IMG/VR virus record: IMGVR_UViG_3300027743_000022 | Origin: an uncultured virus (IMG/VR IMGVR_UViG_3300027743_000022) | Lineage: Duplodnaviria; Heunggongvirae; Uroviricota; Caudoviricetes | Strand: one strand, 5' to 3' | DNA: 64,000 bases | Notes under the pieces: model-generated | Databases searched by the model: none | Seen by the model: only the letters and a program-made list of their open reading frames with translations | What the model was told of the DNA's origin: nothing | Shown here: positions 5,200-56,713 of the stretch, one piece after another | How the letters are laid out: each line of letters starts with the position of its first letter | How positions within the stretch are numbered: position 1 is the first letter of the stretch | Position numbers and translations under genes: made by a program

Positions 5200-8100
5200 T
5201 TATCTACCAAAACCATATTGGCTTTGCATTTGTATTCCTAAATCTTTAGCTAAGTCAGGAGCAAACATTGGAAGTAAGCTTGCTGCTTGTGAAGCAAAGG
5301 GCATAGTTTTCATCCAGTATTTAATAGAATTATTATCATCTACCAGTTCTGTATCTCCTTGAACAAGTCCATAGACCTCTGCTAGTGTACTATATAGAGC
5401 TTTTGTATAATCTTCTATTAATCCTAAGGCAGGGAATATCTCACCTTTAGTAAGACCAGCTAAGCTTCTTGGGTCGTAGAAATAGTGTAATTCATCTTTA
5501 AGTTTATCTGTAGCTTTTTGTATAAACTTAAAGGTATTTTTTATTCTTGGGTCTTCATCATCATCTGGAGCTAAGGCTTTTAATCCCCACATACACAATA
5601 CAGACAAAGTTGCATATACCATAAGGTCATGTATCTGGTTTCTAATATTAGTTCTCATAAGATTTATAAACTCTGCTTCAGTCATATCAAGCTCCTTACC
5701 AGTTTCTTCATAGTATGTTCTCTTGTTTGTTTCAAACATTTCTCTCATATATTCTACACCCTTATCATTAGCTATTAATGAATTACGTAACCTACCTATA
5801 CTTTTAAGTACATCTTCACTAATAACCTTAGCAACCATTCTGGATCTACCCCACTCATAAGCATCAGAAGCAGCATTATATTTCATTGCACCAAACCTAA
5901 CATCTACAAGTCTAGGTATCCAGTTTTTAAATACCATAAGAGAGTTACCATATACAGTCATATTAACCATTCTCTTGTTCTCTGCTGACATAGAACCTAA
6001 AGCATCAGTACTGAATGCTTGTACTGTTCTTCTAAAGTCTATTACAGTGTTTGATTTTTGCTCTATCCCTGGAATAACAAAGTTACCTTCCTTATCTACA
6101 GTACCTAATTTAAGAAGTCCATGTGATTCATTAAGCTTAAGAACATCCTCTTCAAACTTATCAGCTCTTTTTCTTCTGTCTTCAGCACTACCAGCATAGA
6201 AATCTACATACTCAGGAGTTGTTCTAAGATACTCTCTGGTGTTTAATACCTCTCCATTCATAACAATAGCATGTCTAAGGAAAGCATAGAAGTTAGTAGC
6301 CTGTACAGCTTCCTCTCCATTTCTCATTAAGACCATTAGAAAGTCTTGTACAGCATTTTCATCTAGAACACCAGGTTTTAATGATAGTTTTTTACTAGCA
6401 TCTTTATTATACTTTTCAAGGAAAGGCATAAAATAATCAAGAGCTGCTAACATTTTCTGCTTATCACTACCACCTAGCTTATTAGCTAGAAGCCACATCT
6501 CTGTATTTACATAGTCTTGTTTAGTAAAATATTTACCTGAGTTAATCCATGAGTGTGTTTTACCACCAAAGTAGTTAGAGAAGGATGATAGTGGGTTGAG
6601 ACCAAGAGTCTTTAATTGGAACATATTATTCAATGCATCCAATGATCTGTTTATACTTATCTCTCTGTTCTTTAAATTTTCAGGCATTAGTTTAAAACCA
6701 AGAGTACTATTAACCTTAGTAGTAAAACCATCAAGCTTACCTATAAGCATATCAAATGTTGCACTCTCAATATACTTTTGTCCATATACTATAGACTTAA
6801 CCATATCCTCTATCAGTGCAGAGTTCTCTGAGTTGTTAGGAGATACCTTAAGACTACCATCAGGTTCTAATGAGGTTCTTCCAAATACGGAAGTAGCTAT
6901 TGCATTTTTATTTTTTTCCAATCTTATCAAAGATCTTGATTGATATTCAATATCAGTCATATATTTAAACTTAATAGCCATCTCATTATACAGAAACATA
7001 TTTTTGAATAGGTCTGTACTATAGTCATCCTCTAGCTCTGAGGTAAAGTATTTAGGTATTTTATCTATTAACTGTCCAGTGAGAGGATCTACTGCGCCAT
7101 AACCAACAGTTCCTTCATCTACAGAGATGTTTCTTAAAAATTGTTCCCCTAATGATACCTTACCACCAAAGACTAACTTCTCTGTAAAACTCTTTCTTAC
7201 CCAAGGTAGAAAGGTTCTTGCTTGTTGATTATTTATATATCCTATACTAGCATAGTATTCATTTCTTTCTTTTATATAGTTATAGAAATCTAGAGCTGGT
7301 GTATTTTCTGGTTTATTTAAATTCTTCCATTCATCAGAAGTCCATTTCCCTGGATCAGGATATTTATATATCTCTCCTCTTAATAACCAACCATGAGAAG
7401 TAGGAGTAGATATACTATACTTATCTCTGGCGTTAGTAATATCTCTTTGTTTACGAAACCTAGCTAATTCTTCATCACCTGAATAAGCTTTATTATCTAT
7501 ACGAGTAAGCTCTTCTTGAAGAAGTTTATTCAAATGTTCTTTATATTCAGTAACATTTATATTATCTTTTATCCAGGCATAGTCTTTATTTTGTACTCTC
7601 TTTACAACTTCTGTATAGAACTCATGTTTGAATTCATCTATAAGTTCATTACTGTTTGGTTTCTTAATAGCATTAAACATGTTTTTCTTATCTAAACCTT
7701 TATTAGCAGCCCAGGTAAGATAATTATCTTTAAGTTGAGTAAGACGTTTAAACTCTGTATTAGTATCCATAGAAGCAAAACCTAAAGCTCTACCTGCTTT
7801 CTTATATATCTCTTGTAGACCTTTAAGTTGTATAGTAGCAGAAGTACCAAACCATCTGGTAAATCCTTTAACTACTTTCTCAGCATTAATTGTACCTCCT
7901 ACAAAGTTTAAGGTAAAGTCTGTATATATATCACCAAGCTTATCTTTGTAATCACTAGCAGTCTCTGCTACTTTTCTTAAATCTTTTTTTAGTTTCTTAT
8001 CTTCTTCAGATAGCTCTCCCTGGAACATGAAACTAAGGTCTCTATTAAGCTCTTTGTAGCTTTCTAACACTTCTTCAGCACTATGTAAGTCTCTTGTAAA

Positions 8101-30900: not shown

Positions 30901-31578
30901 ATTCATTTTACCACCATGTTTAGTAAGTACATTTGTACCTACACCATATGTTGGAAACAAAGCATTAGCATCTATAGTAGGAGTTATTGACTGTCTAAAT
31001 TTTCTCTGAGTATCAGCTATATCAGTATACTTATTTACATCAGGAGTCTGTGATGCTTTAAGAGCTGCAGCACTTACCTGATTCCATTGCTGAGCACCTT
31101 TAAGAGCATCTCTCTCAGCTTTAAGAGCTTTAAATCCACCTACTACTTTATCAACTCCAGGCATCATATTACCAATAGTTTCCCAAGGACTTATTCCTTT
31201 TGCTGTTGGATAAGGACTATTCTTTGGACCAAAGGTTGTATTAACTGATGCATCAGGTCCTTCTAGTATATCTTGAATACCATTTCTATTTGTATCACCA
31301 CCAGTATTTATAGCTCCAGGATTAGGATTAGTAAAGCTAGGATAGTTCTGTGCTTGTGGTCCAGGTAATGGTCCAGGTCCTTGTATATTAGGTTGGAAGT
31401 TTTCATAAGCATCAGGAATACCATTCCCATTTTTATCCATATTACCACCATACTGCATACTTAGCAATTGATGTAACTCTTTACCATGTTTAGCCATGAA
31501 TGATTCCTGAGTTGGAAACATTTTATAGAACTCTTTCTCATTCTTAGCTCCTGATATTTTTAAAATGTGTGCTTTCAT
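27976..31578 (-). CDS. Internal virion cargo protein (crAss C1-like), 1200 aa
   Basis: Low complexity, repeated xxGG motifs, GQSHDE..G..VEAERGE segment, Gly/Ala hydrophobic stretch, Q/N coiled coil; position after the muzzle. Confidence 0.65.
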   Translation of the reverse strand: MKAHILKISGAKNEKEFYKMFPTQESFMAKHGKELHQLLSMQYGGNMDKNGNGIPDAYENFQPNIQGPGPLPGPQAQNYPSFTNPNPGAINTGGDTNRNGIQDILEGPDASVNTTFGPKNSPYPTAKGISPWETIGNMMPGVDKVVGGFKALKAERDALKGAQQWNQVSAAALKASQTPDVNKYTDIADTQRKFRQSITPTIDANALFPTYGVGTNVLTKHGGKMNFGGKISDDFNPIDVYEDVGFEPFDNINQVKSFAYGGKAAGGFNLSGMLGAGADSSFDWSGFGNAAGSVAGGLAGNDAGSVIGGGFADVFGMIPGVGPIAGAISKPLFKTVGGMLDRNPERTEYQNNQMMGNVYNMAGMNSIGRYQNQYSGVFEHGGNLTNPQLITKFNGLTQNDLKHYFDDMDTLRTGGNLRTNSVGDIETISGGYLEPISYNPYTPGTGITSMIRGQSHDESNGRHSGVIMNYAGNQVEAERGEPISEREDGGSVGNTSAVIAGDQTFNKLGVNLYPDLAEYQGQKVKNINADIAKDDARLNKFEKKNKLAMADLEEKTPLDKLRKNSYILNQQGIEEQYAANANKTNNLLEYQEAVNDTAEEWGVDSGDLSRGKLKFNNPMTAKNGGLLKAQNGSDKLKAAQALQNILNPGLFNPGINFNNLPASAKRAIIQTSKQTPTKPIDLSKDVLYNRMTPQKSIYPQIPVGMGEQRMKDVLAQLNPGGFGVGSFGNPMARVKAPLPSANPVAGQSITAPAETARTISVAKNTDVAPVQVTQARQSGQPQRTVGTPGTVGSVKPAATNRGTTPTVGATPSAVGATGAPTSGYTSKYGLEPWAGNVMPGNKYGKKTASSFTGEQWDQIAENLGFTGRGNEEFQNFLLNHPESKPLIDARHKQLYGTSPFVDKKLGYGWAADDLLKLKKAVAPTTAQTTTVNPNYQVTPYRQSGWETLAGQILPWMRKTPGEPLLGDQLAGEMFALSNNQVEPVQANFYKPQLDVPYDISYQDQLNENQADFNAMQRSLGNNPEALAALAAQKYSANSKVLAEQFRANQAMKNQVYSGNRATLNDAQLKNLQIADQQYVRREQAGTNTRRAMQEALNSVASKIGQNRLENKTLQTYSNMFPQYSYDKNFNILNTGAPASFNVDQGIYSPRSGNISHVPVYDNKGNIVGMQPVAPEKTPEEKKAEEKKARQGSIIKAFKGL

Positions 31579-32228
31579 GGCATATTATTTATATTTTTAT
31601 GAGTTATTGAAATCATTTTCTTAAACTCATCCATACTTAAATTACTTTTAGCTGTGTTTGCCCAAGAGCAAACCAACTGAATATTATCTTTAATATATCC
31701 TAAATTAGGATTTATTCTATCTACTGAAACATTAGAAAAATAATAAACACCTTTTCCTTTTACTGTAGTCATCTCAATCCCAGAGATAATACATCTATGG
31801 TTTTGTTTTTCCCATAAGAATAATAAGTAATCTAGGTCTATATCAAATCCTTTTTGAGTTCTTTTATTATCTCTTCTAATATTTCTTAGTATTCCTTTAA
31901 AAGTCTTTACAGGAGTAGAATTTACATCCTGTACATACTTCTTTTCACAAACTTTGCACTTTGACTGAAAAACTAAACCATTTCTTTTACCTATGAAAGA
32001 AGTAAAAAATTCTGCTGTTTTTGGATATTCTATTTTACACACTGTACAGATTCTCATAGAATCTCCTGCTTTATTTAAATTTTGTCTACACAAAGTTAAA
32101 GAATGTGCTTTGCATATAACAGAACTTTTAGTTCTATTCAATTTAAGTGCTAATTCTTTATTATCTAATATAGTATAATTTTCTTGTAAATATACTATAT
32201 CTTCCTCTTTCCATCTTATATTATTCAT
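31575..32228 (-). CDS. HNH-type homing endonuclease with N-terminal HTH and Zn ribbon
   Basis: RWKEED..LQENY..ELALKLNRT (HTH), CxxC pairs, WEKQNHRC..SG, SVDRINPNLGY..NIQLVC..AN. Confidence 0.8.
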   Translation of the reverse strand: MNNIRWKEEDIVYLQENYTILDNKELALKLNRTKSSVICKAHSLTLCRQNLNKAGDSMRICTVCKIEYPKTAEFFTSFIGKRNGLVFQSKCKVCEKKYVQDVNSTPVKTFKGILRNIRRDNKRTQKGFDIDLDYLLFLWEKQNHRCIISGIEMTTVKGKGVYYFSNVSVDRINPNLGYIKDNIQLVCSWANTAKSNLSMDEFKKMISITHKNINNMP

Positions 32229-49114: not shown

Positions 49115-50082
49115 ACTGATGCTATTTTTTTAGCTTTTAATTTTCCTTCTAGGGTTAGTAAGTCATCTTGATGCTCATCATCAGCCAGATATTTCACTAA
49201 TTCATCTTCATCTTTAGCTACTTCAAACTCTCCTTCATAAATTCTACCACTATTTCTAGTACGATAGATAGAATGAGCTAAAGCTTGTTTTACCAAATCT
49301 TTAATATGGAGCAAGTTTTCTTTCATGTCAGCAAATGAATTAAACACTGTCACAGGATCTAAACCAGAATATCTACCTTTTTTATCCATCTCTGTCTTTT
49401 TAAGTAAATTATCAATCTGATTATATACTACTTCCTCTTTAGTATCTTCAGTTACTGGAAGTCCTAGCAATCTTGCTACTTTACGTTTCTTATCAATTGT
49501 CATACTATCAAACTTAATAATAGCTTTATTGATAAGTTGTTTTTTCTTGTAAAGAACAGCATTCTCAATTTCATCATCTGCTATATAAAATTGTGTATCT
49601 GCTGGATATTCTCCTCTTTCCCATGCCTGATATGAACTGGCAATGGTAGGATGTACTCTTAGCCATGCAAATGCTATAGCCATGAAAGGATTACTCTGAT
49701 CAAACAAATTATCACCATCTAATAGTTTAACAGGTTGAACATGTTCATTATCATTTGATGATGATGATAAACCATAGTTCCAAAACTTAGAACGAGGACC
49801 TAAATCAATATCTCCTAGTTCACTTTGTAGTCTGTCTCGCAACTTGGTAACTCTTTCAACTTCAAGTTCTCTTTCAACTGTATCTTGAATTCTTTTTATA
49901 TAAGCTGCATCAGGATCTAATCCAGTACGGTATTTACCATCCATTTCCTTGTAGGGAAACTTAAATACTCCTGTCCCTGGAACTCTGGTTAAGCCTTTTT
50001 GACTTAAACCACCATCCATCGTTTGCTGGTCTGAGCTGCTACGTTCTACCTTAATAACAGCAATTTTGCCTACTCTTTCCAT
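49111..50082 (-). CDS. Conserved crAss protein downstream of the MCP (gene 75-like)
   Basis: KYRTGLD, HPTIASS, QFYI motifs; synteny; start moved to MERVGK (50082), preceded by AACCAAATAACTAAATAT. Confidence 0.7.
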   Translation of the reverse strand: MERVGKIAVIKVERSSSDQQTMDGGLSQKGLTRVPGTGVFKFPYKEMDGKYRTGLDPDAAYIKRIQDTVERELEVERVTKLRDRLQSELGDIDLGPRSKFWNYGLSSSSNDNEHVQPVKLLDGDNLFDQSNPFMAIAFAWLRVHPTIASSYQAWERGEYPADTQFYIADDEIENAVLYKKKQLINKAIIKFDSMTIDKKRKVARLLGLPVTEDTKEEVVYNQIDNLLKKTEMDKKGRYSGLDPVTVFNSFADMKENLLHIKDLVKQALAHSIYRTRNSGRIYEGEFEVAKDEDELVKYLADDEHQDDLLTLEGKLKAKKIASV

Positions 50083-50103
50083 ATATTTAGTTATTTGGTT
50101 TTG

Positions 50104-50154
50104 TGGATAGTAGTGGAGTCGAACCACCTTTAGCTTGTAAGCCCCATGCTACCC
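50104..50154 (-). ncRNA. tRNA-like mini-element (acceptor stem plus T-arm, one short internal hairpin)
   Basis: Minus strand GGGTAGC-ATGG-GGCT TACA AGCT-AAA-GGTGG TTCGACT CCACT-ACTATCC-A. Confidence 0.55.
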
Positions 50155-50157
50155 ATG

Positions 50158-50250
50158 TTCTTTGTTAACGCACAAAGAATAAAGCGTTTATTTGAGAGCA
50201 AATTCCCTCCTGTGGGAGAGAAGGGGTTAGAGGGGATTCACTCTCTCTCA
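50158..50250 (-). terminator. Two hairpins after the MCP/HNH genes (attenuator or mRNA stabiliser)
   Basis: TTCTTTGT/ACAAAGAA 8-bp stem at 50158-50179; GC-rich imperfect stem TGAGAG..TTCCCTC / GAGGGGA..CTCTCA at ~50193-50250. Confidence 0.45.
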
Positions 50251-50255
50251 GTTCC

Positions 50256-50723
50256 TTAGAACTGAGGAATATTATTAGCTTCAATTACTTTCTTTACATG
50301 TTCTATTTCCATATTTGGATTATGAATCTCTCTATGGCAATTAGCACATAATAACATACATTTTGAAGCTTCTTCTAAAATCTCATCATCTTTCTTGTAC
50401 TTTAGATACTGTATCTTTATCTCAAACTTTTTTTCATAACCATCTTTATGATGAAAATCAAAAGCTGCTATATTTTTATCATAACCACACTTTTCACATT
50501 TACCTCCAAACAACTGAATAAGTTCTAACTTTTTCTGAATACCTTTCATGGTATATTTATTTAAACCAAACTCATTCTTAAATTGTTGATATTGCTTAGA
50601 AGCAGTTGCGTACTTATGCAAATCATGACATTTTTGAGAACAAAACACTTTATCTTTTCTCAACTTTCTATTACTATTAATAGCACTAAAAAGCATTCCA
50701 CAATGAAGACAATTCTTTTCCAT
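50256..50723 (-). CDS. HNH homing endonuclease
   Basis: CLHC..FCSQKC N-terminus; GGKCEKCGY..FDFHH..KC.LLCANCHREIH. Confidence 0.85.
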   Translation of the reverse strand: MEKNCLHCGMLFSAINSNRKLRKDKVFCSQKCHDLHKYATASKQYQQFKNEFGLNKYTMKGIQKKLELIQLFGGKCEKCGYDKNIAAFDFHHKDGYEKKFEIKIQYLKYKKDDEILEEASKCMLLCANCHREIHNPNMEIEHVKKVIEANNIPQF

Positions 50724-50726
50724 ACC

Positions 50727-52280
50727 TTAAAATTGTGGTATTTCTTCAATAAGTACTGTTCTGGACAAGTCTTCAATGAACACATCACATCTGTCTTTCA
50801 TCCAAATTTCATAACCAGGGAATTTATTAGCAGAAGACATACCTTGAGATTTTGCAAATCCTAAGTGGTGTCTAGTACCATCAATATAACCCCAAGTCAT
50901 AGAAGGAGCACCTTTCATACGTACCTCACGAATATTATTAACCATAGAACCATCAGACATTGGAGAAACATCAAACACGAAGAATACTGGTGTTGATTTT
51001 TTGTTTTGTCCAAACTCTAAGTTAGTTTGAGGTAAGTCAAGTTCTTTCAAGTGAATCAACTCAATTTTACCAGTTTCACGAGTGATCATAGAATCAAACG
51101 CAAAGTTGTAAGTAATATGTTGTCCTTCACCTTGCATAAATCTGTTTCCAGAGTCTGCTACAAGAACAAGACCTGAATTTAGAGCATCATTTTTAAGAGC
51201 TTGTTGGAATACATCAAATCCAGCTTCATTAGTGTACATTTTAACACGTCTGTCTTTCACATCCACACGTCTGTAGAATAAATCTCCAAACACACTTCTC
51301 AAAAGATTAGCACTAAACTCACCTCTGTTGTACTGAACTAAGTTACCATTATTACGCATTCTGTAGTATACACCAGCAGAAACACGTTTTACTTCTTGTC
51401 GGCTACCATTAGTTTTTACTGTACCTGGTTGAGCCCAGATCATACGTTTTACTTTTAGTTCCAACATTGACTTACGCATCCAGAATTCAATAAATGGTTC
51501 CCATTTAACATCATTACGAGTTAAAGGTAATTCACCACGTCTTTGAGGAGCATATACTAAGATGTCCAAAGCTTTACCACCAGAATCTTTCAACATTCTA
51601 TCATCTGCCCATTCTGTGATTTTGTGTTCATAACCATATGCAGAGCTTAAAGACTCAAACATAGTAATTTTTTCACCAAGTCTAGGTAAACCTAGCAAGT
51701 CTTGGTCAAATTCACCAATAGCAGCATCAACCAATTCAAGTTCGTTACCAACTTTCAAGAATTGAGAAGCAACAAAATCAACTTTAGGATTTGGAGAAAC
51801 GAGAGTAAAAGAATAAAGATAACCATTGTTCCATGGTAGTGGATCTTTAATCGCGTATAAACGAGGACCATATTGACGAGATCCTACTGAAACGATGGCA
51901 TTCTTAGAGAACTCGTTAGTGTCTAGCACTAATTGGAACTCTTGTCCATCAATACCAGGTTTAGCTAAAGCTGCAGTGGTGTCAGGGATGTCAATAATCT
52001 TAGGGAATTTGTATGGAACAGCTATGTCCCATTTCCAAGAATCACTGTTATTATCAATGTAAAACGGTGTACTCTTATTAATCATGTCCAGAAAATCATT
52101 GCTGTACAATGTACTCTGGGTGTAGAGACTAATGATTTTCTTATCATAGTCTGCAGGTTCTGTGGAGTGGAAGGATTCCAAGTGATTGGAGTCTGTTAAC
52201 TTACCTACTGCACGTTTGTCCATTGACGCCACCCTGGCGTAGGTAAACCCAACTAATCCTGGGATAGATTGTAGTGCCAT
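50727..52280 (-). CDS. Major capsid protein (crAss-type HK97 fold)
   Basis: 517 aa; crAss synteny (terL - portal - gene 77-like - MCP - 75/74/73); preceded by an A-rich leader. Confidence 0.9.
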   Translation of the reverse strand: MALQSIPGLVGFTYARVASMDKRAVGKLTDSNHLESFHSTEPADYDKKIISLYTQSTLYSNDFLDMINKSTPFYIDNNSDSWKWDIAVPYKFPKIIDIPDTTAALAKPGIDGQEFQLVLDTNEFSKNAIVSVGSRQYGPRLYAIKDPLPWNNGYLYSFTLVSPNPKVDFVASQFLKVGNELELVDAAIGEFDQDLLGLPRLGEKITMFESLSSAYGYEHKITEWADDRMLKDSGGKALDILVYAPQRRGELPLTRNDVKWEPFIEFWMRKSMLELKVKRMIWAQPGTVKTNGSRQEVKRVSAGVYYRMRNNGNLVQYNRGEFSANLLRSVFGDLFYRRVDVKDRRVKMYTNEAGFDVFQQALKNDALNSGLVLVADSGNRFMQGEGQHITYNFAFDSMITRETGKIELIHLKELDLPQTNLEFGQNKKSTPVFFVFDVSPMSDGSMVNNIREVRMKGAPSMTWGYIDGTRHHLGFAKSQGMSSANKFPGYEIWMKDRCDVFIEDLSRTVLIEEIPQF

Positions 52281-52312
52281 CTTATTCTAATTTTTGTTGT
52301 TATTACTAATTT

Positions 52313-53569
52313 TTATAAACCACCCCATTCTGGAGGGCTTAAGCTTCCTGTATTTTTAGATCCACCAGTAGTTCTGTCTTTTGTAACTTGTCTGGCAACC
52401 TCGCTAAATAAAGAATCAGTTTGTTTAGTAACACCAGCTTTTTGAATAGTGGAAAGAGTTGGATCTTTCTCTAGTACTTTTAAGAGTAGAGCTATCTTAA
52501 CTTTGGTTGCATGATTCTCTGGTCTTTTCAAATCTAGAATCATCTTATCAAAATCAGTTAGCGTATCTCCTGCAGCTGTCTTATACTTGTCGACTAAAAG
52601 GAACTCTTGTAGCTCACCTGCCAACTTAGTATTGATGGGAATACCATCAAACTGTTTCTCTTTTAGTTTTTCTTGTATAACAGATTGAACATTATTAATA
52701 AACAGATTTTTAACCTGTGCTTTCTGAGCTAATTCATATTGAGATCTTTGTTCAATCTCTTGTAATTTAGCTGCTTGCTTTTTTACTAATACTTTATGAT
52801 TTCTTGTAGCTACTGTTTCCAGATCACCATAATTCTTCAATCGTTCAATCTCTGTATCTATATCTTCTTTATCGTAACCTTGTTCTGTTAGTGCTGCTCT
52901 GACTACTGATTCTTGATTACTTTCAATAGTAAGATCCATTTCAGCATAATCTACAGCTGTATTATAAGCTGTAAAATATTCACGAGGGTCAACACCCTTA
53001 ACAAATATGGCATCAAAAGCTTGTTGATAATCTTCTCCAAACTGACCTATAAATTGGTTAACCATATCTATAGCTCCTCTTTGTTTCTCATCATTGAATC
53101 TTTCTAAGAAAGCTTCAGGAGTGGAAATATCAGGATCAGGATCATTTTCATCTTCAGTGAATACTCCTAATTTGAATAAATCCCTGGACAATGCTGTAAA
53201 TTGGTTACCCTGTGGAGCATCCTCTTCATTATCTTTAGTAATATTTGCTGCTTTTCCTGTAGTGATTACCTCTTCTTCATCATCATCTTCATGATTACCT
53301 AAGAAGTCATTAATAGTATTCTTGTTTTTTGGTTCTTCTCCTGGTTCAGGAGGTGTAAGATCTTTTCCTTTAAGAGGAAGAGTCTTAGGATCAGCTGGTG
53401 GTGCAGGTGGTTCAGCATCCTTAACAATAGGTGTGATGTCTGCAGGATCAGTTGAAGTCTCTGGAGACATAAGGTCATTCAGTAATTGGGCATTTCCTAA
53501 GCCCATTTCCATAGTATCTTTGATACTGAAATCACTGAATGCATCTTTATTAGTTTCTTCAGTTGCCAT
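52313..53569 (-). CDS. Acidic scaffold-like protein (crAss gene 77-like)
   Basis: Acidic Pro-rich N-terminus, helical C-terminus; immediately upstream of the MCP. Confidence 0.65.
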   Translation of the reverse strand: MATEETNKDAFSDFSIKDTMEMGLGNAQLLNDLMSPETSTDPADITPIVKDAEPPAPPADPKTLPLKGKDLTPPEPGEEPKNKNTINDFLGNHEDDDEEEVITTGKAANITKDNEEDAPQGNQFTALSRDLFKLGVFTEDENDPDPDISTPEAFLERFNDEKQRGAIDMVNQFIGQFGEDYQQAFDAIFVKGVDPREYFTAYNTAVDYAEMDLTIESNQESVVRAALTEQGYDKEDIDTEIERLKNYGDLETVATRNHKVLVKKQAAKLQEIEQRSQYELAQKAQVKNLFINNVQSVIQEKLKEKQFDGIPINTKLAGELQEFLLVDKYKTAAGDTLTDFDKMILDLKRPENHATKVKIALLLKVLEKDPTLSTIQKAGVTKQTDSLFSEVARQVTKDRTTGGSKNTGSLSPPEWGGL

Positions 53570-53597
53570 ATGTAGTTGTATTATTGGTTTATGAATG

Positions 53598-53605
53598 TAA
53601 AATTA
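53598..53605 (-). promoter_or_regulatory. Near-consensus -7 element (TAATTTTA) for the capsid operon
   Basis: Intergenic, ~28 nt upstream of ATG 53569; leader AACCAATAATACAACTACATATG resembles the leader of the 50082 gene. Confidence 0.4.
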
Positions 53606-53701
53606 TAAAGAGATTTACTCTTTACAAAGGATAATGGTACTCATTAGAATAATTTTTCCCATTTTATAGCATAAAGACAATCCATTTCTAACCAAAAAAG
53701 T

Positions 53702-54124
53702 TTATTTGCCAGGTTTGTTTTTGTTTCTAAGGTAATTAATAGCAGATTGAAGTCTATTTATATCTTCATTCATCAGACCTAAAGCAGTATTACAATTATT
53801 ACAAAGTAAACTTCTTACTTCTCCTGTTGAATGAGAATGATCTACTGCTAATCTTCTTTTAAACTCTGTTTGATGCCTATAACAGATTGCACAAAAGCCT
53901 TTCTGTTTTTCAAATAAAATATTATATTCTTCTAAAGAAATATTATATTTATTTTTTATATTTCTTTCCCTACTAACTATAGGATCATAATTTTCTTTAT
54001 ATTTATCTGCATTATAAATAGAGACACATACTTTACAATATGCTTTCCTTTGAAATTTACCATTTTTATCATAATTAAATTCATCTAATGGTTTTTCCAC
54101 ATGACATTTTGAACACCTCTTCAT
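53702..54124 (-). CDS. Endonuclease VII-family (His-Me finger) homing endonuclease
   Basis: CSKC..KPLDEF..CKVC; KYNISLEEY..Q.G.CAIC; LAVDHSHSTGEVRSLLCNNCNTALG. Confidence 0.85.
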   Translation of the reverse strand: MKRCSKCHVEKPLDEFNYDKNGKFQRKAYCKVCVSIYNADKYKENYDPIVSRERNIKNKYNISLEEYNILFEKQKGFCAICYRHQTEFKRRLAVDHSHSTGEVRSLLCNNCNTALGLMNEDINRLQSAINYLRNKNKPGK

Positions 54125-54127
54125 AGC

Positions 54128-56713
54128 TTATTTTTTAGGATTATTACGATTTCGAGCATTAATTTTAGCTATTTCAAGGTCATTTTTCTGATTATCTCTT
54201 TCTACATCAAGTTTTTCTCTTTCTATATCAAATTTTCTATTATCTATTTGTTGTTTAGAATTTATACCAGCCATTTTAGTTTCAAAATCTCTAGTAACTC
54301 TCATTTCTTCATTAGCCATATTGGTAATTTCTAAAGCATCAGCTACTCCTGACTGGTCAACATCCGCAGTAGCCTCTGGATTTCTTGAAAGGGCTTGAAT
54401 GACAGCAATTTCTTTTTTATTGATTCTATCCAACTCGTTTTCATGATTTTGATTAAGTATTTCTTGTTCTCTAGCTTGTCTGGCTTGTTCCATCTGAGCC
54501 TGAGCAATTTGTCCTTGTTGTTCAACTTTTTGTTGTTCAGTTTGCTGAGCTTGTTGTTGCATAGCATCTTGTTTATCACGTAAATCTTTGAAAACTTTTT
54601 TCATTGCTCTCATTGATTTATTTGAATAAAGTTCTATAATATCATATACACTACCTCCATTTTGGATAATAGCCTGACTTAACTGTCTAAGCTCATTAAA
54701 CATTTTAGTATCTTCAGGTCTATTAGTTGGGAATATTTTTAAATCTCTAAATTTAATATCATTTCCAGTAACAGTAATAAAAGCAGCTTCTCCTTCTGCA
54801 GTAATATAAGATATATTGGATTCAGGTTTACTAGATTCAATATATTGAGAAGCATCTATGATAGCTTGATATAAATGTCCTAAGACATATTCATGTGCTA
54901 CAAACAAAGGTTCTGTTTGTGTATAACTTTGTTGTACCTCTGTGTTTGTCCCTGTAGCAGTAGCAGAAGCAGCTACATTTCCCATTCTTGATTTAGACAT
55001 ACCAATTAACTCCCAACATTCATTCTTCATTTGTACAGCCAGATTATATCTGGTTTGAATCTCTTGAGTTCTAGTAAGGTCTAAAGCTGTAAATTGATTG
55101 AAGCTACTTGGAGCTTTAAGATTTTCAGGACTATCATCCACAAATACAACACCTCTACGTCTTGCTTCCATTTCCCAAACATCAAGAGCATCTTGTGCAT
55201 CCCCATCTTTAGGAATTGGTACATGACGAAGTGACATTAATTGTACCTTACCTATTTCCTTACCTAATATCTCAAATAGTTGATTCATACAAACATTATA
55301 GATAACCTGGAAAGGTTTCATCATGTCTAGTAAGGATCTAGACTCTGTATTTTTAATTTCATGTATTGTTCCTATGATAGGACAATAATTCAATAATTTG
55401 AATGGTTTTACAAAGTAAATATCAGGTCCTACTTTAATTCCCTGATACCATTCATTAATCCATCCCCATTCTAAACTCACCTGAGTAGGAAGTATTCCTG
55501 ACTTGTAATTCTCATCAACTAACATTGACTGCAGTTCATCAAACTTATCTCTATAAACTACTTTACCTATTTTTCTTTTAGATATCCAGTATGCTCTAAC
55601 TACAACATATTTATACCCAAATGCACTAACATTATTAGTTAGTCCTAAGAAGTCTCTAAGTCCATCATTATTCTCTTTAAGCTCAGACTCAATAATCATC
55701 CTTGTCTGAAGGACTAAAGGGTCATAAGCATCATACATAATAGACTCTTGTCCTGGTATTGCATTGGGATTTCCCAAGTTCGATTCTCTAACATTAATAA
55801 GCCCATAATCTTGTAAGCTACTTCTAAGGTGGTCAATTTCTTCTTTAGTTAAGTCTGGAATACTCTCTATAATCTCTGAAAGTTCCATTACTTGTACAGT
55901 TCCTGCTGCATAAGCTCCTTGAGCTCTACCACTTGGATCTGATATATATTTTCTGTCTGGTGTGGTTAAATACCATGTATTTTTAGGATTTGCTACTTCA
56001 ATATTGTATCCCACCTTAGAATTATCTTCATAAATATGGTAAAATTCTCTATTAGAAATACATAAATCTCGAAAAGCATCTTCTGATTTCTCTTTAGTAT
56101 TAAAGTCTGCTTGTTGACAGGTGAGAACGTGATTAGCCCACTTTTCCCCTATAGAAGTATAATCTGTCAACTGCTCTTGTACTTGCTCCATGGACATCTG
56201 TTCTGCTTCCTCAGGTTCAAGTTCTATCCCTTCCATTGCAGCTTTCTCAAGTATCTTTTTCTTTGCTTGGGACATTATATAGTCCTGTAACATTTGAGTT
56301 TTATATTGTAACTCTTCAGCTTTAGATTCATCATCAAAAGCTTTTATTCTATATGTATCAGGTCTTTTTGTTAACTCTCCTACTAATTCATTTATTGGTG
56401 TAGTTACTATAGAATAGTTCTTTACATACTTAGGCAAAGCCATATCTTTTTCAAGCATATCTGTAAAGCTCTTTACTTCAGGTTCCTGATAGAAATCTTC
56501 TACCCTAAGGATACCTTTAATAAGGTCATAGTTTCCCACAAAAGTTTCTCTGTTCTTAATATATTCTGAGTATGCTTTGTTGGCAAAGTAATCCATTGTA
56601 TTCTTTATCCAACTTTCGTCAGCTTTTTCCTTTTCAGTCTTAAACTGATCTGGGAATATATTAAGATAGGCATACCTAATGGTAGCATCCTTGGTATATC
56701 TGATAATTGCCAT
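54128..56713 (-). CDS. Portal protein
   Basis: 861 aa directly after terL; WGWINEWY.G.K.G, MKPFQ..YN, Q-rich C-terminal helix. Confidence 0.9.
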   Translation of the reverse strand: MAIIRYTKDATIRYAYLNIFPDQFKTEKEKADESWIKNTMDYFANKAYSEYIKNRETFVGNYDLIKGILRVEDFYQEPEVKSFTDMLEKDMALPKYVKNYSIVTTPINELVGELTKRPDTYRIKAFDDESKAEELQYKTQMLQDYIMSQAKKKILEKAAMEGIELEPEEAEQMSMEQVQEQLTDYTSIGEKWANHVLTCQQADFNTKEKSEDAFRDLCISNREFYHIYEDNSKVGYNIEVANPKNTWYLTTPDRKYISDPSGRAQGAYAAGTVQVMELSEIIESIPDLTKEEIDHLRSSLQDYGLINVRESNLGNPNAIPGQESIMYDAYDPLVLQTRMIIESELKENNDGLRDFLGLTNNVSAFGYKYVVVRAYWISKRKIGKVVYRDKFDELQSMLVDENYKSGILPTQVSLEWGWINEWYQGIKVGPDIYFVKPFKLLNYCPIIGTIHEIKNTESRSLLDMMKPFQVIYNVCMNQLFEILGKEIGKVQLMSLRHVPIPKDGDAQDALDVWEMEARRRGVVFVDDSPENLKAPSSFNQFTALDLTRTQEIQTRYNLAVQMKNECWELIGMSKSRMGNVAASATATGTNTEVQQSYTQTEPLFVAHEYVLGHLYQAIIDASQYIESSKPESNISYITAEGEAAFITVTGNDIKFRDLKIFPTNRPEDTKMFNELRQLSQAIIQNGGSVYDIIELYSNKSMRAMKKVFKDLRDKQDAMQQQAQQTEQQKVEQQGQIAQAQMEQARQAREQEILNQNHENELDRINKKEIAVIQALSRNPEATADVDQSGVADALEITNMANEEMRVTRDFETKMAGINSKQQIDNRKFDIEREKLDVERDNQKNDLEIAKINARNRNNPKK

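Follow-up and report, generated by a model that had tools for sequence, protein, structure and literature searches.

An HNH gene placed directly behind the major capsid protein gene of a crAss-like phage most probably encodes a free-standing homing endonuclease, whose mobile unit would consist of the last capsid codons, the stop codon and the nuclease gene, and which would cut near the end of the capsid gene and be copied by one-sided repair. In the window (the whole stretch of 64,000 nucleotides that was analysed) and its relatives we found an inserted unit at a fixed site, optional in its presence, with short overlaps at its junctions, the native capsid tail displaced downstream and a conserved nuclease active site.

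Matching gene ends and an empty allele

The capsid gene (50727..52280, minus strand, 517 aa; PF23898 Crass_capsid, E 3.5e-28; phrog_11589) showed a match of only 21-26% to the nearest annotated phages; the sequencing runs containing the stretch were labelled freshwater sediment and soil, and RNA runs contained a fraction of 0.05-0.09 of its sequence words. Its open reading frame ends ATT GAA GAA ATA CCA CAA TTT TAA GG. The HNH gene (50256..50723, minus strand, 155 aa; PHROG HNH matches, best E 4e-22) starts 3 nt after the capsid stop and ends ATT GAA GCT AAT AAT ATT CCT CAG TTC TAA GG. Both C-termini thus read IPQF, with different codons at 4/4 residues, and we found the two ends on the minus strand just as the first-pass annotation had described them. 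The additional IE further upstream in the HNH protein is not a remnant of the capsid gene; the match to the empty allele begins at ATT CCT. The GG that follows both stops may be due to chance. A chance match of the two tails was ruled out by its uniqueness: no other pair shared its last four residues among 595 ORF pairs of the window, or among 842 distinct adjacent ORF pairs from all fetched loci.

Seven PHROG families matched the HNH ORF, six of them named HNH endonuclease. Its gene has a GC content of 28%, vs 37% for the capsid gene. A terminator-like hairpin of the capsid gene (50203..50225, minus strand, found by a consensus scan) now lies behind the HNH gene, which would therefore sit within the capsid transcript. 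A similar hairpin is present behind the capsid stop in empty alleles too.

Scanning viral contigs for ATTCCTCAGTTCTAAGGAAC retrieved two stretches: one matches the window exactly, the other is L129. In the latter, ATTCCTCAGTTCTAAGGAAC ends the capsid gene and no HNH gene follows it, so that, as the first-pass annotation had anticipated for an HNH-free relative, the capsid gene ends in the codons of the HNH gene and runs into the same downstream DNA. The two sequences are 96% identical over 300 nt upstream. The window corresponds to L129 plus 471 nt, a clean insert in codon Ile514 that brings a new capsid tail, a stop and the HNH gene and is coding except for 3 nt; the earlier proposal that a cassette had entered the last capsid codons was thereby supported. 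Identity extends over 41 nt up to 50740, is interrupted by the insert and resumes over 59 nt from 50270, this second run being the capsid end of L129 and the DNA downstream of it. Because 2 nt (AT) fit both sides, the cassette, with boundaries computed from this alignment, can be placed at 50269..50739 (minus strand) or equally at 50271-50741.

The first 13 nt of the insert, A CCA CAA TTT TAA (50727..50739, minus strand), are the incoming replacement tail, identity with L129 breaking at 50739. The original tail and stop, ATT CCT CAG TTC TAA (50256..50270, minus strand), identified by their identity with L129, are now the last four codons and stop of the HNH gene. In this pair the displaced tail is identical to L129 at 15/15 nt and the inserted tail at 11/15. 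Upstream, 10 of 117 codons differ between the window and L129, vs 4/4 in the tail; the probability of this by drift was near 5e-5. The L129 alignment and the codon differences together showed, at the level of sequence comparison, that the downstream copy of IPQF is the native one and that the upstream copy arrived with the HNH gene.

Occupied alleles, codon make-up and the nuclease family

We searched for other alleles from both genes. Among the best 80 of at least 602 capsid matches (88-100% identity), one was a twin of the window, one (L002) carried a related HNH gene and 78 had no HNH gene directly behind the stop. The presence of the nuclease at its cognate site is therefore optional, L129 and L079 being empty close relatives. 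Searches with the nuclease gave 28 close matches, which reduce to 12 distinct alleles; each of them immediately follows a capsid gene. The distance from the capsid stop was -1 to about 5 nt in 12/12 distinct close-family alleles with DNA context, the stop and start codons overlapping in most of them. No capsid match was found at loci with distant HNH matches only (202 matches). A scan of metagenomes with the family alignment and generic HNH patterns yielded a single further close locus, which duplicates L083.

The comparison of L082 (occupied) with L079 (empty) revealed a 9-codon replacement: all 43 codons upstream agree, and 8 of the last 10, stop included, do not. The HNH stop of L082 is followed by the remnant AA TTC TAA and by the downstream DNA of L079. 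The remnant also lies after the HNH stop in L089 and L292. Remnants vary in length and match the empty allele of their own lineage. TTCTAA was present at the nuclease end in 5/9 Phe-ending occupied alleles, the other 4/9 having no such remnant, and a clean remnant was absent in 3 occupied alleles with Leu- or Val-ending capsids. By comparison, neither QF nor the stop context TTCTAA was found in any of 160 distinct distant HNH homologues, so that the observations which the first-pass annotation had named as fatal to its reading, among them IPQF on HNH proteins elsewhere, did not materialize. A final F was found in 9/51 family proteins vs 1/69 distant ones. A C-terminal QF occurred in 2/12 alleles with context (the window and L002, whose HNH protein ends KKQF) and in 4/51 family proteins; the earlier idea that the HNH gene adopts the capsid tail and stop is supported for the window, but adoption in frame is not required. 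At about 7070 in L002, the HNH end has two tandem copies of TTCTAA, perhaps the scars of two successive homing events.

At the capsid site, skips of 471 and 474 nt were seen in contigs of runs X2 and X6. These HNH-free joins were placed at the stop codon, not at Ile514; they confirm the existence of empty alleles and are uninformative on the tail carried. In run X2 (50218-50769) the occupied contig had a depth of 8.3 and the HNH-free join a depth of 3.7; since this run has both contig types, the two alleles may coexist in one sample. Some other features of this region were also observed. L077 has a different HNH gene (about 6760-7100), downstream of the capsid terminator and ahead of the gene that comes next, without tail replacement. 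In the window the same interval contains a short tRNA-like stretch (50104-50156, minus strand) with a T-loop-like GGTTCGACTCC and a closing stem, and no D arm by eye; its fold was not significant (z -0.96) and ARAGORN found no tRNAs in the window. A different tRNA-like sequence occupies this place in L129, and what look like full tRNAs do so in L015 and L079.

The codon make-up of the tail differed markedly between the two kinds of allele. The capsid gene ends TTC TAA in 53/58 distinct empty alleles vs 0/12 occupied ones, and Ile511 is encoded by ATA in 2/58 vs 9/12, ATA being used at 15 of 1364 Ile positions in empty capsid genes. Occupied and empty alleles differed on average by 6.2 of the last 10 codons (4.2 among empty alleles) and by 4.3 of the preceding 10 (3.9 among empty alleles). 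Across the capsid gene, TTT amounted to 120/233 in occupied lineages vs 609/1542, and these lineages were somewhat richer in ATA throughout the gene as well. These data show that the replacement tail travels with the cassette. They fit with a selection of its codons for resistance to cleavage but do not establish it, since the occupied alleles have a common cassette ancestry and the same codons are favoured by the HNH gene and, to some extent, by the occupied lineages throughout the capsid gene. Owing to this ancestry, to the excess of TTT and to the partly different search by which the occupied lineages were retrieved, the codon p-values are overstated. Of the earlier suggestion of a recoded, cleavage-resistant replacement end, the replacement stands and the resistance is putative; a safer meaning of 'recoded' is that the tail comes from the donor and moves with the cassette, deliberate recoding being supported on statistical grounds only.

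The HNH protein has an N-terminal Cys4 treble-clef-like finger and a C-terminal HNH domain. C76, C79, H91, H92, C126, N128, C129 and H130 are invariant in 51 family members, which the protein search delimited as 51 clusters (58-100% identity) with a clear gap to the next matches. PF01844 was matched weakly by 20/51 members, and Pfam gave no match for the window protein itself. The dN/dS ratio, obtained by simple counting, was 0.10-0.20 in the 4/5 pairs for which it was computable; the HNH gene is under purifying selection. In a structure model (pLDDT 89), IPQF lies past the last helix. The top ranks in Foldseek were HNH nucleases (Cap5, McrA, VcaM4I, Cas9), with non-significant E values of at least 0.14; the best VIA Z score, 3.8 to treble-clef fingers, was not significant either, and a sequence search of solved structures with the HNH protein yielded nothing under E 0.4. 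By eye, many of the distant HNH homologues (L092-L123) are followed by tRNA-like sequence, which suggests that the wider family targets tRNA clusters.

The distribution of the nuclease was compared with a quick tree built from the gene that follows, with 64 rows; 5 empty alleles and L091, whose marker gene was unmatched, were omitted. In this tree 23/60 inner branches are open and gain is not polarised against loss. The occupied alleles were scattered and not clustered: their label required 9 changes for 11 tips, a number as low in 86/500 shuffles, and at least 4 changes were forced by the starred branches. Three occupied alleles were sister to an empty allele (SH-aLRT 95-100). Between L082 and L211 the HNH is 87% identical and the tail almost the same, as against 79% identity in the neighbouring gene. 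Identities of the HNH and host genes were partly correlated (Mantel rho 0.42, p 0.03), so that some inheritance may be vertical or among close kin only. A group I intron was also considered and rejected, as the 471-nt insert leaves no non-coding room, the capsid ORF has its own stop and a comparison of 49900-54400 with Rfam, accepting E values up to 1, returned no introns. By these computations, the HNH gene appears to fit a free-standing homing endonuclease in its nuclease domain, its optional presence and its lack of an enclosing intron or intein, and it may have spread horizontally between lineages.

The portal gene and an Endo VII-type nuclease

We propose that an unrelated nuclease of the Endo VII type carried out the same tail swap at the portal gene, 3.5 kb from the HNH case; it had been missed in the first-pass annotation. 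The portal gene (54128..56713, minus strand, 861 aa; PF16510 P22_portal, E 4.9e-11) now has the C-terminus RNRNNPKK. The Endo VII/F-CphI-like gene (53702..54124, minus strand, 140 aa; PF02945, E 2.6e-25) begins 3 nt after its stop and has the C-terminus RNKNKPGK. In run X3, a 2305-nt contig has 53723 directly next to 54150, so that 426 nt are left out, and GAAA fits both sides; a contig of run X5 has a 426-nt skip at 53728/54155. Judging from the X3 join, in joint coordinates, the nuclease-free portal allele keeps the present tail of the Endo VII gene. The insert (53724..54149, minus strand, delimited with the X3 and X5 contigs) would then comprise a replacement portal tail and the Endo VII gene, and the end of the latter (53702..53727, minus strand) would be the original portal tail and stop, kept in the nuclease-free contig. 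A scan of viral contigs for the empty portal allele found the window-identical contig alone.

In L003, a nuclease with 52% identity ends KGRNKKSK, as do the portal proteins of L011 and L020, and the same downstream gene start follows in all three. More distant nuclease homologues with psbA-type tail ends were found behind psbA in L351, and in L305/L307; the gene at these loci is presumably psbA, judging by its C-terminal motif. Inspection of cyanophage-type loci (L351 at about 1500-1900, L305/L307, L302 at 2650 and L328-L332 at 2955) indicated that the psbA C-terminus is found a second time at the end of an F-CphI-like nuclease or of a later ORF. The interval between the portal gene and a scaffold-like gene was variable in L003-L080, measuring about 100-145 nt in some, while in many others an additional gene (about 600-650 nt) begins at the portal stop. 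The window has a third nuclease-like gene (31575-32228, minus strand), with Endo VII/HNH PHROG matches, which overlaps both neighbours; a tail scar was not seen there in three frames.

Proposed mechanism and known systems

According to the mechanism that we favour, the HNH enzyme would, upon co-infection, cut a capsid allele that lacks the nuclease, some five codons ahead of the stop. We infer cleavage near Ile514 because the longest remnant starts there and the replaced segment of L082 spans this codon. The upstream end would be repaired on the capsid gene of the donor, with copying of the donor tail and of the HNH gene, and the downstream end would be joined through a few shared bases, without homology repair because these phages have no related DNA downstream of the capsid gene. 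For T4, the available text of PMC2988022 describes one-sided homing whose junctions show microhomology. This pathway would leave the HNH gene followed by the tail and stop that belonged to the recipient, and this is indeed the order found. The capsid protein is unchanged, and the target would be destroyed twice, the new tail having other codons and the old one having lost its upstream half. When the join falls in frame before the stop of the nuclease gene, it removes that stop and the old tail would become the nuclease C-terminus; this capture looks incidental, a by-product of the join. The HNH target could also lie elsewhere than in the last codons, since free-standing T4 enzymes cut far from their genes, and later recombination can trim the flanks.

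The latter possibility is central to a different reading, which we consider improbable: intronless homing with a distant cut site, the tail and remnant being scars of rare illegitimate insertions and the codons reflecting donor polymorphism or A/T drift and not protection. The T4 Seg enzymes, which are free-standing, do cut hundreds to thousands of bases from their own genes (available text of PMC2988022), the ATA and TTT of the tail match the codon style of the HNH gene (TTT 79/92, ATA 47/99) and all four last codons differ in 10/1540 empty-empty pairs. Against a distant cut, there is no foreign tract upstream, whether in the window pair (41 identical nt) or in L082/L079 (0/43 codons differing), the differences between occupied and empty alleles rise more in the last 10 codons than in the preceding 10, and the repeated remnants indicate breaks at the capsid end each time.

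Far less probable still is that the HNH gene is ancestral at this site and that empty alleles are precise deletions between the two tail copies. The tree count, which cannot tell gain from loss, the Mantel correlation and the placement of the 471- and 474-nt skips at the stop would be compatible with this, but the 78 empty loci of the best 80 would require many precise losses, and the remnants differ in length, each matching the empty allele of its lineage. Under either order of events the scar records an insertion, because the IPQF-stop copy must derive from a capsid gene. We give even less credit to a selection of IPQF on the HNH protein itself, for instance for docking to the capsid or to a partner that binds the capsid C-terminus, as in a packaging-associated HNH enzyme. 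In-frame fusion at two loci (window and L002), the 9/51 proteins ending in F and the location in the head module agree with it, but 47/51 proteins do not end in QF, the remnant comes after the HNH stop in L082, L089 and L292, most relatives lack the HNH gene and the tail extends beyond the last helix of the model.

Homing with replacement of the capsid tail therefore remains our preferred reading. It would mean that the coding sequence of even the most essential virion genes is open to a homing nuclease without intron or intein, also across phages with homology on one side only, and that foreign codons can stand at the end of capsid, portal and psbA genes; odd nuclease C-termini would be a cheap genome-wide marker of past homing and of likely cut sites. 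The matched empty and occupied alleles provide a base-precise substrate, so that the target of the HNH family is testable with a 60-bp duplex. More tentatively, and with the odds somewhat against it, tail replacement might be a general, selected 'home-and-rescue' strategy of free-standing phage nucleases, on which different folds would have converged at capsid, portal and psbA genes, the tail being kept resistant and the recipient tail (e.g. AATTCTAAT) serving as a portable downstream micro-homology arm in the next jump. If so, this arm would let the cassette cross between phages with unrelated DNA after the target gene, and the scars would let cut sites be read straight off genomes.

In the openly accessible literature searched, we found no phage report of a tail-replacing nuclease. 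The available text of PMC10448857 and PMC12724721 describes no duplicated gene tails, and the word element 'duplicat' is absent from the main text of the T4 review (PMC2988022). A possible analogue in rps3 was set aside as it was not confirmed in the available text of PMC10448965. The T4 Seg, Mob and td homing systems, as presented in the available text of PMC2988022, resemble the phage case in having a nuclease beside an essential gene, a patchy distribution and one-sided microhomology repair; they differ in cutting hundreds or thousands of bases away, with long co-conversion, whereas here the probable break coincides with the insertion point in the last codons. F-CphI of cyanophage S-PM2 has an Endo VII motif, the same fold as the portal-linked nuclease, and is free-standing beside its target psbA, but it is protected by the psbA intron, in collaborative homing (available text of PMC6083498), and no intron was found at the window locus.

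The closest parallel is in fungal mitochondria, where mobile endonuclease ORFs bring along a gene C-terminus of foreign origin (Allomyces macrogynus atp6; Glomus atp6, atp9, cox2 and nad3; available text of PMC3630166). As in these ORFs, the nuclease gene comes in together with a new 3' end, the native one, moved downstream, agrees with that of the empty relative, and neither intron nor intein is involved; the inserted C-terminus is in frame with the capsid gene and the endonuclease ORF comes next. According to the same text, the fungal ORFs encode LAGLIDADG or GIY-YIG enzymes, replace 51-238 nt and have the native tail after the ORF, while the phage nucleases have HNH and Endo VII folds, 13-25 nt are replaced and the native tail often provides the nuclease C-terminus and stop. 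The phage cassette would thus work like the Allomyces/Glomus-type mobile ORFs without being a member of that group. From the sequences compared, it is well supported that this architecture, known from fungal mitochondria, is found here in a phage, with base-precise empty alleles and a second locus.
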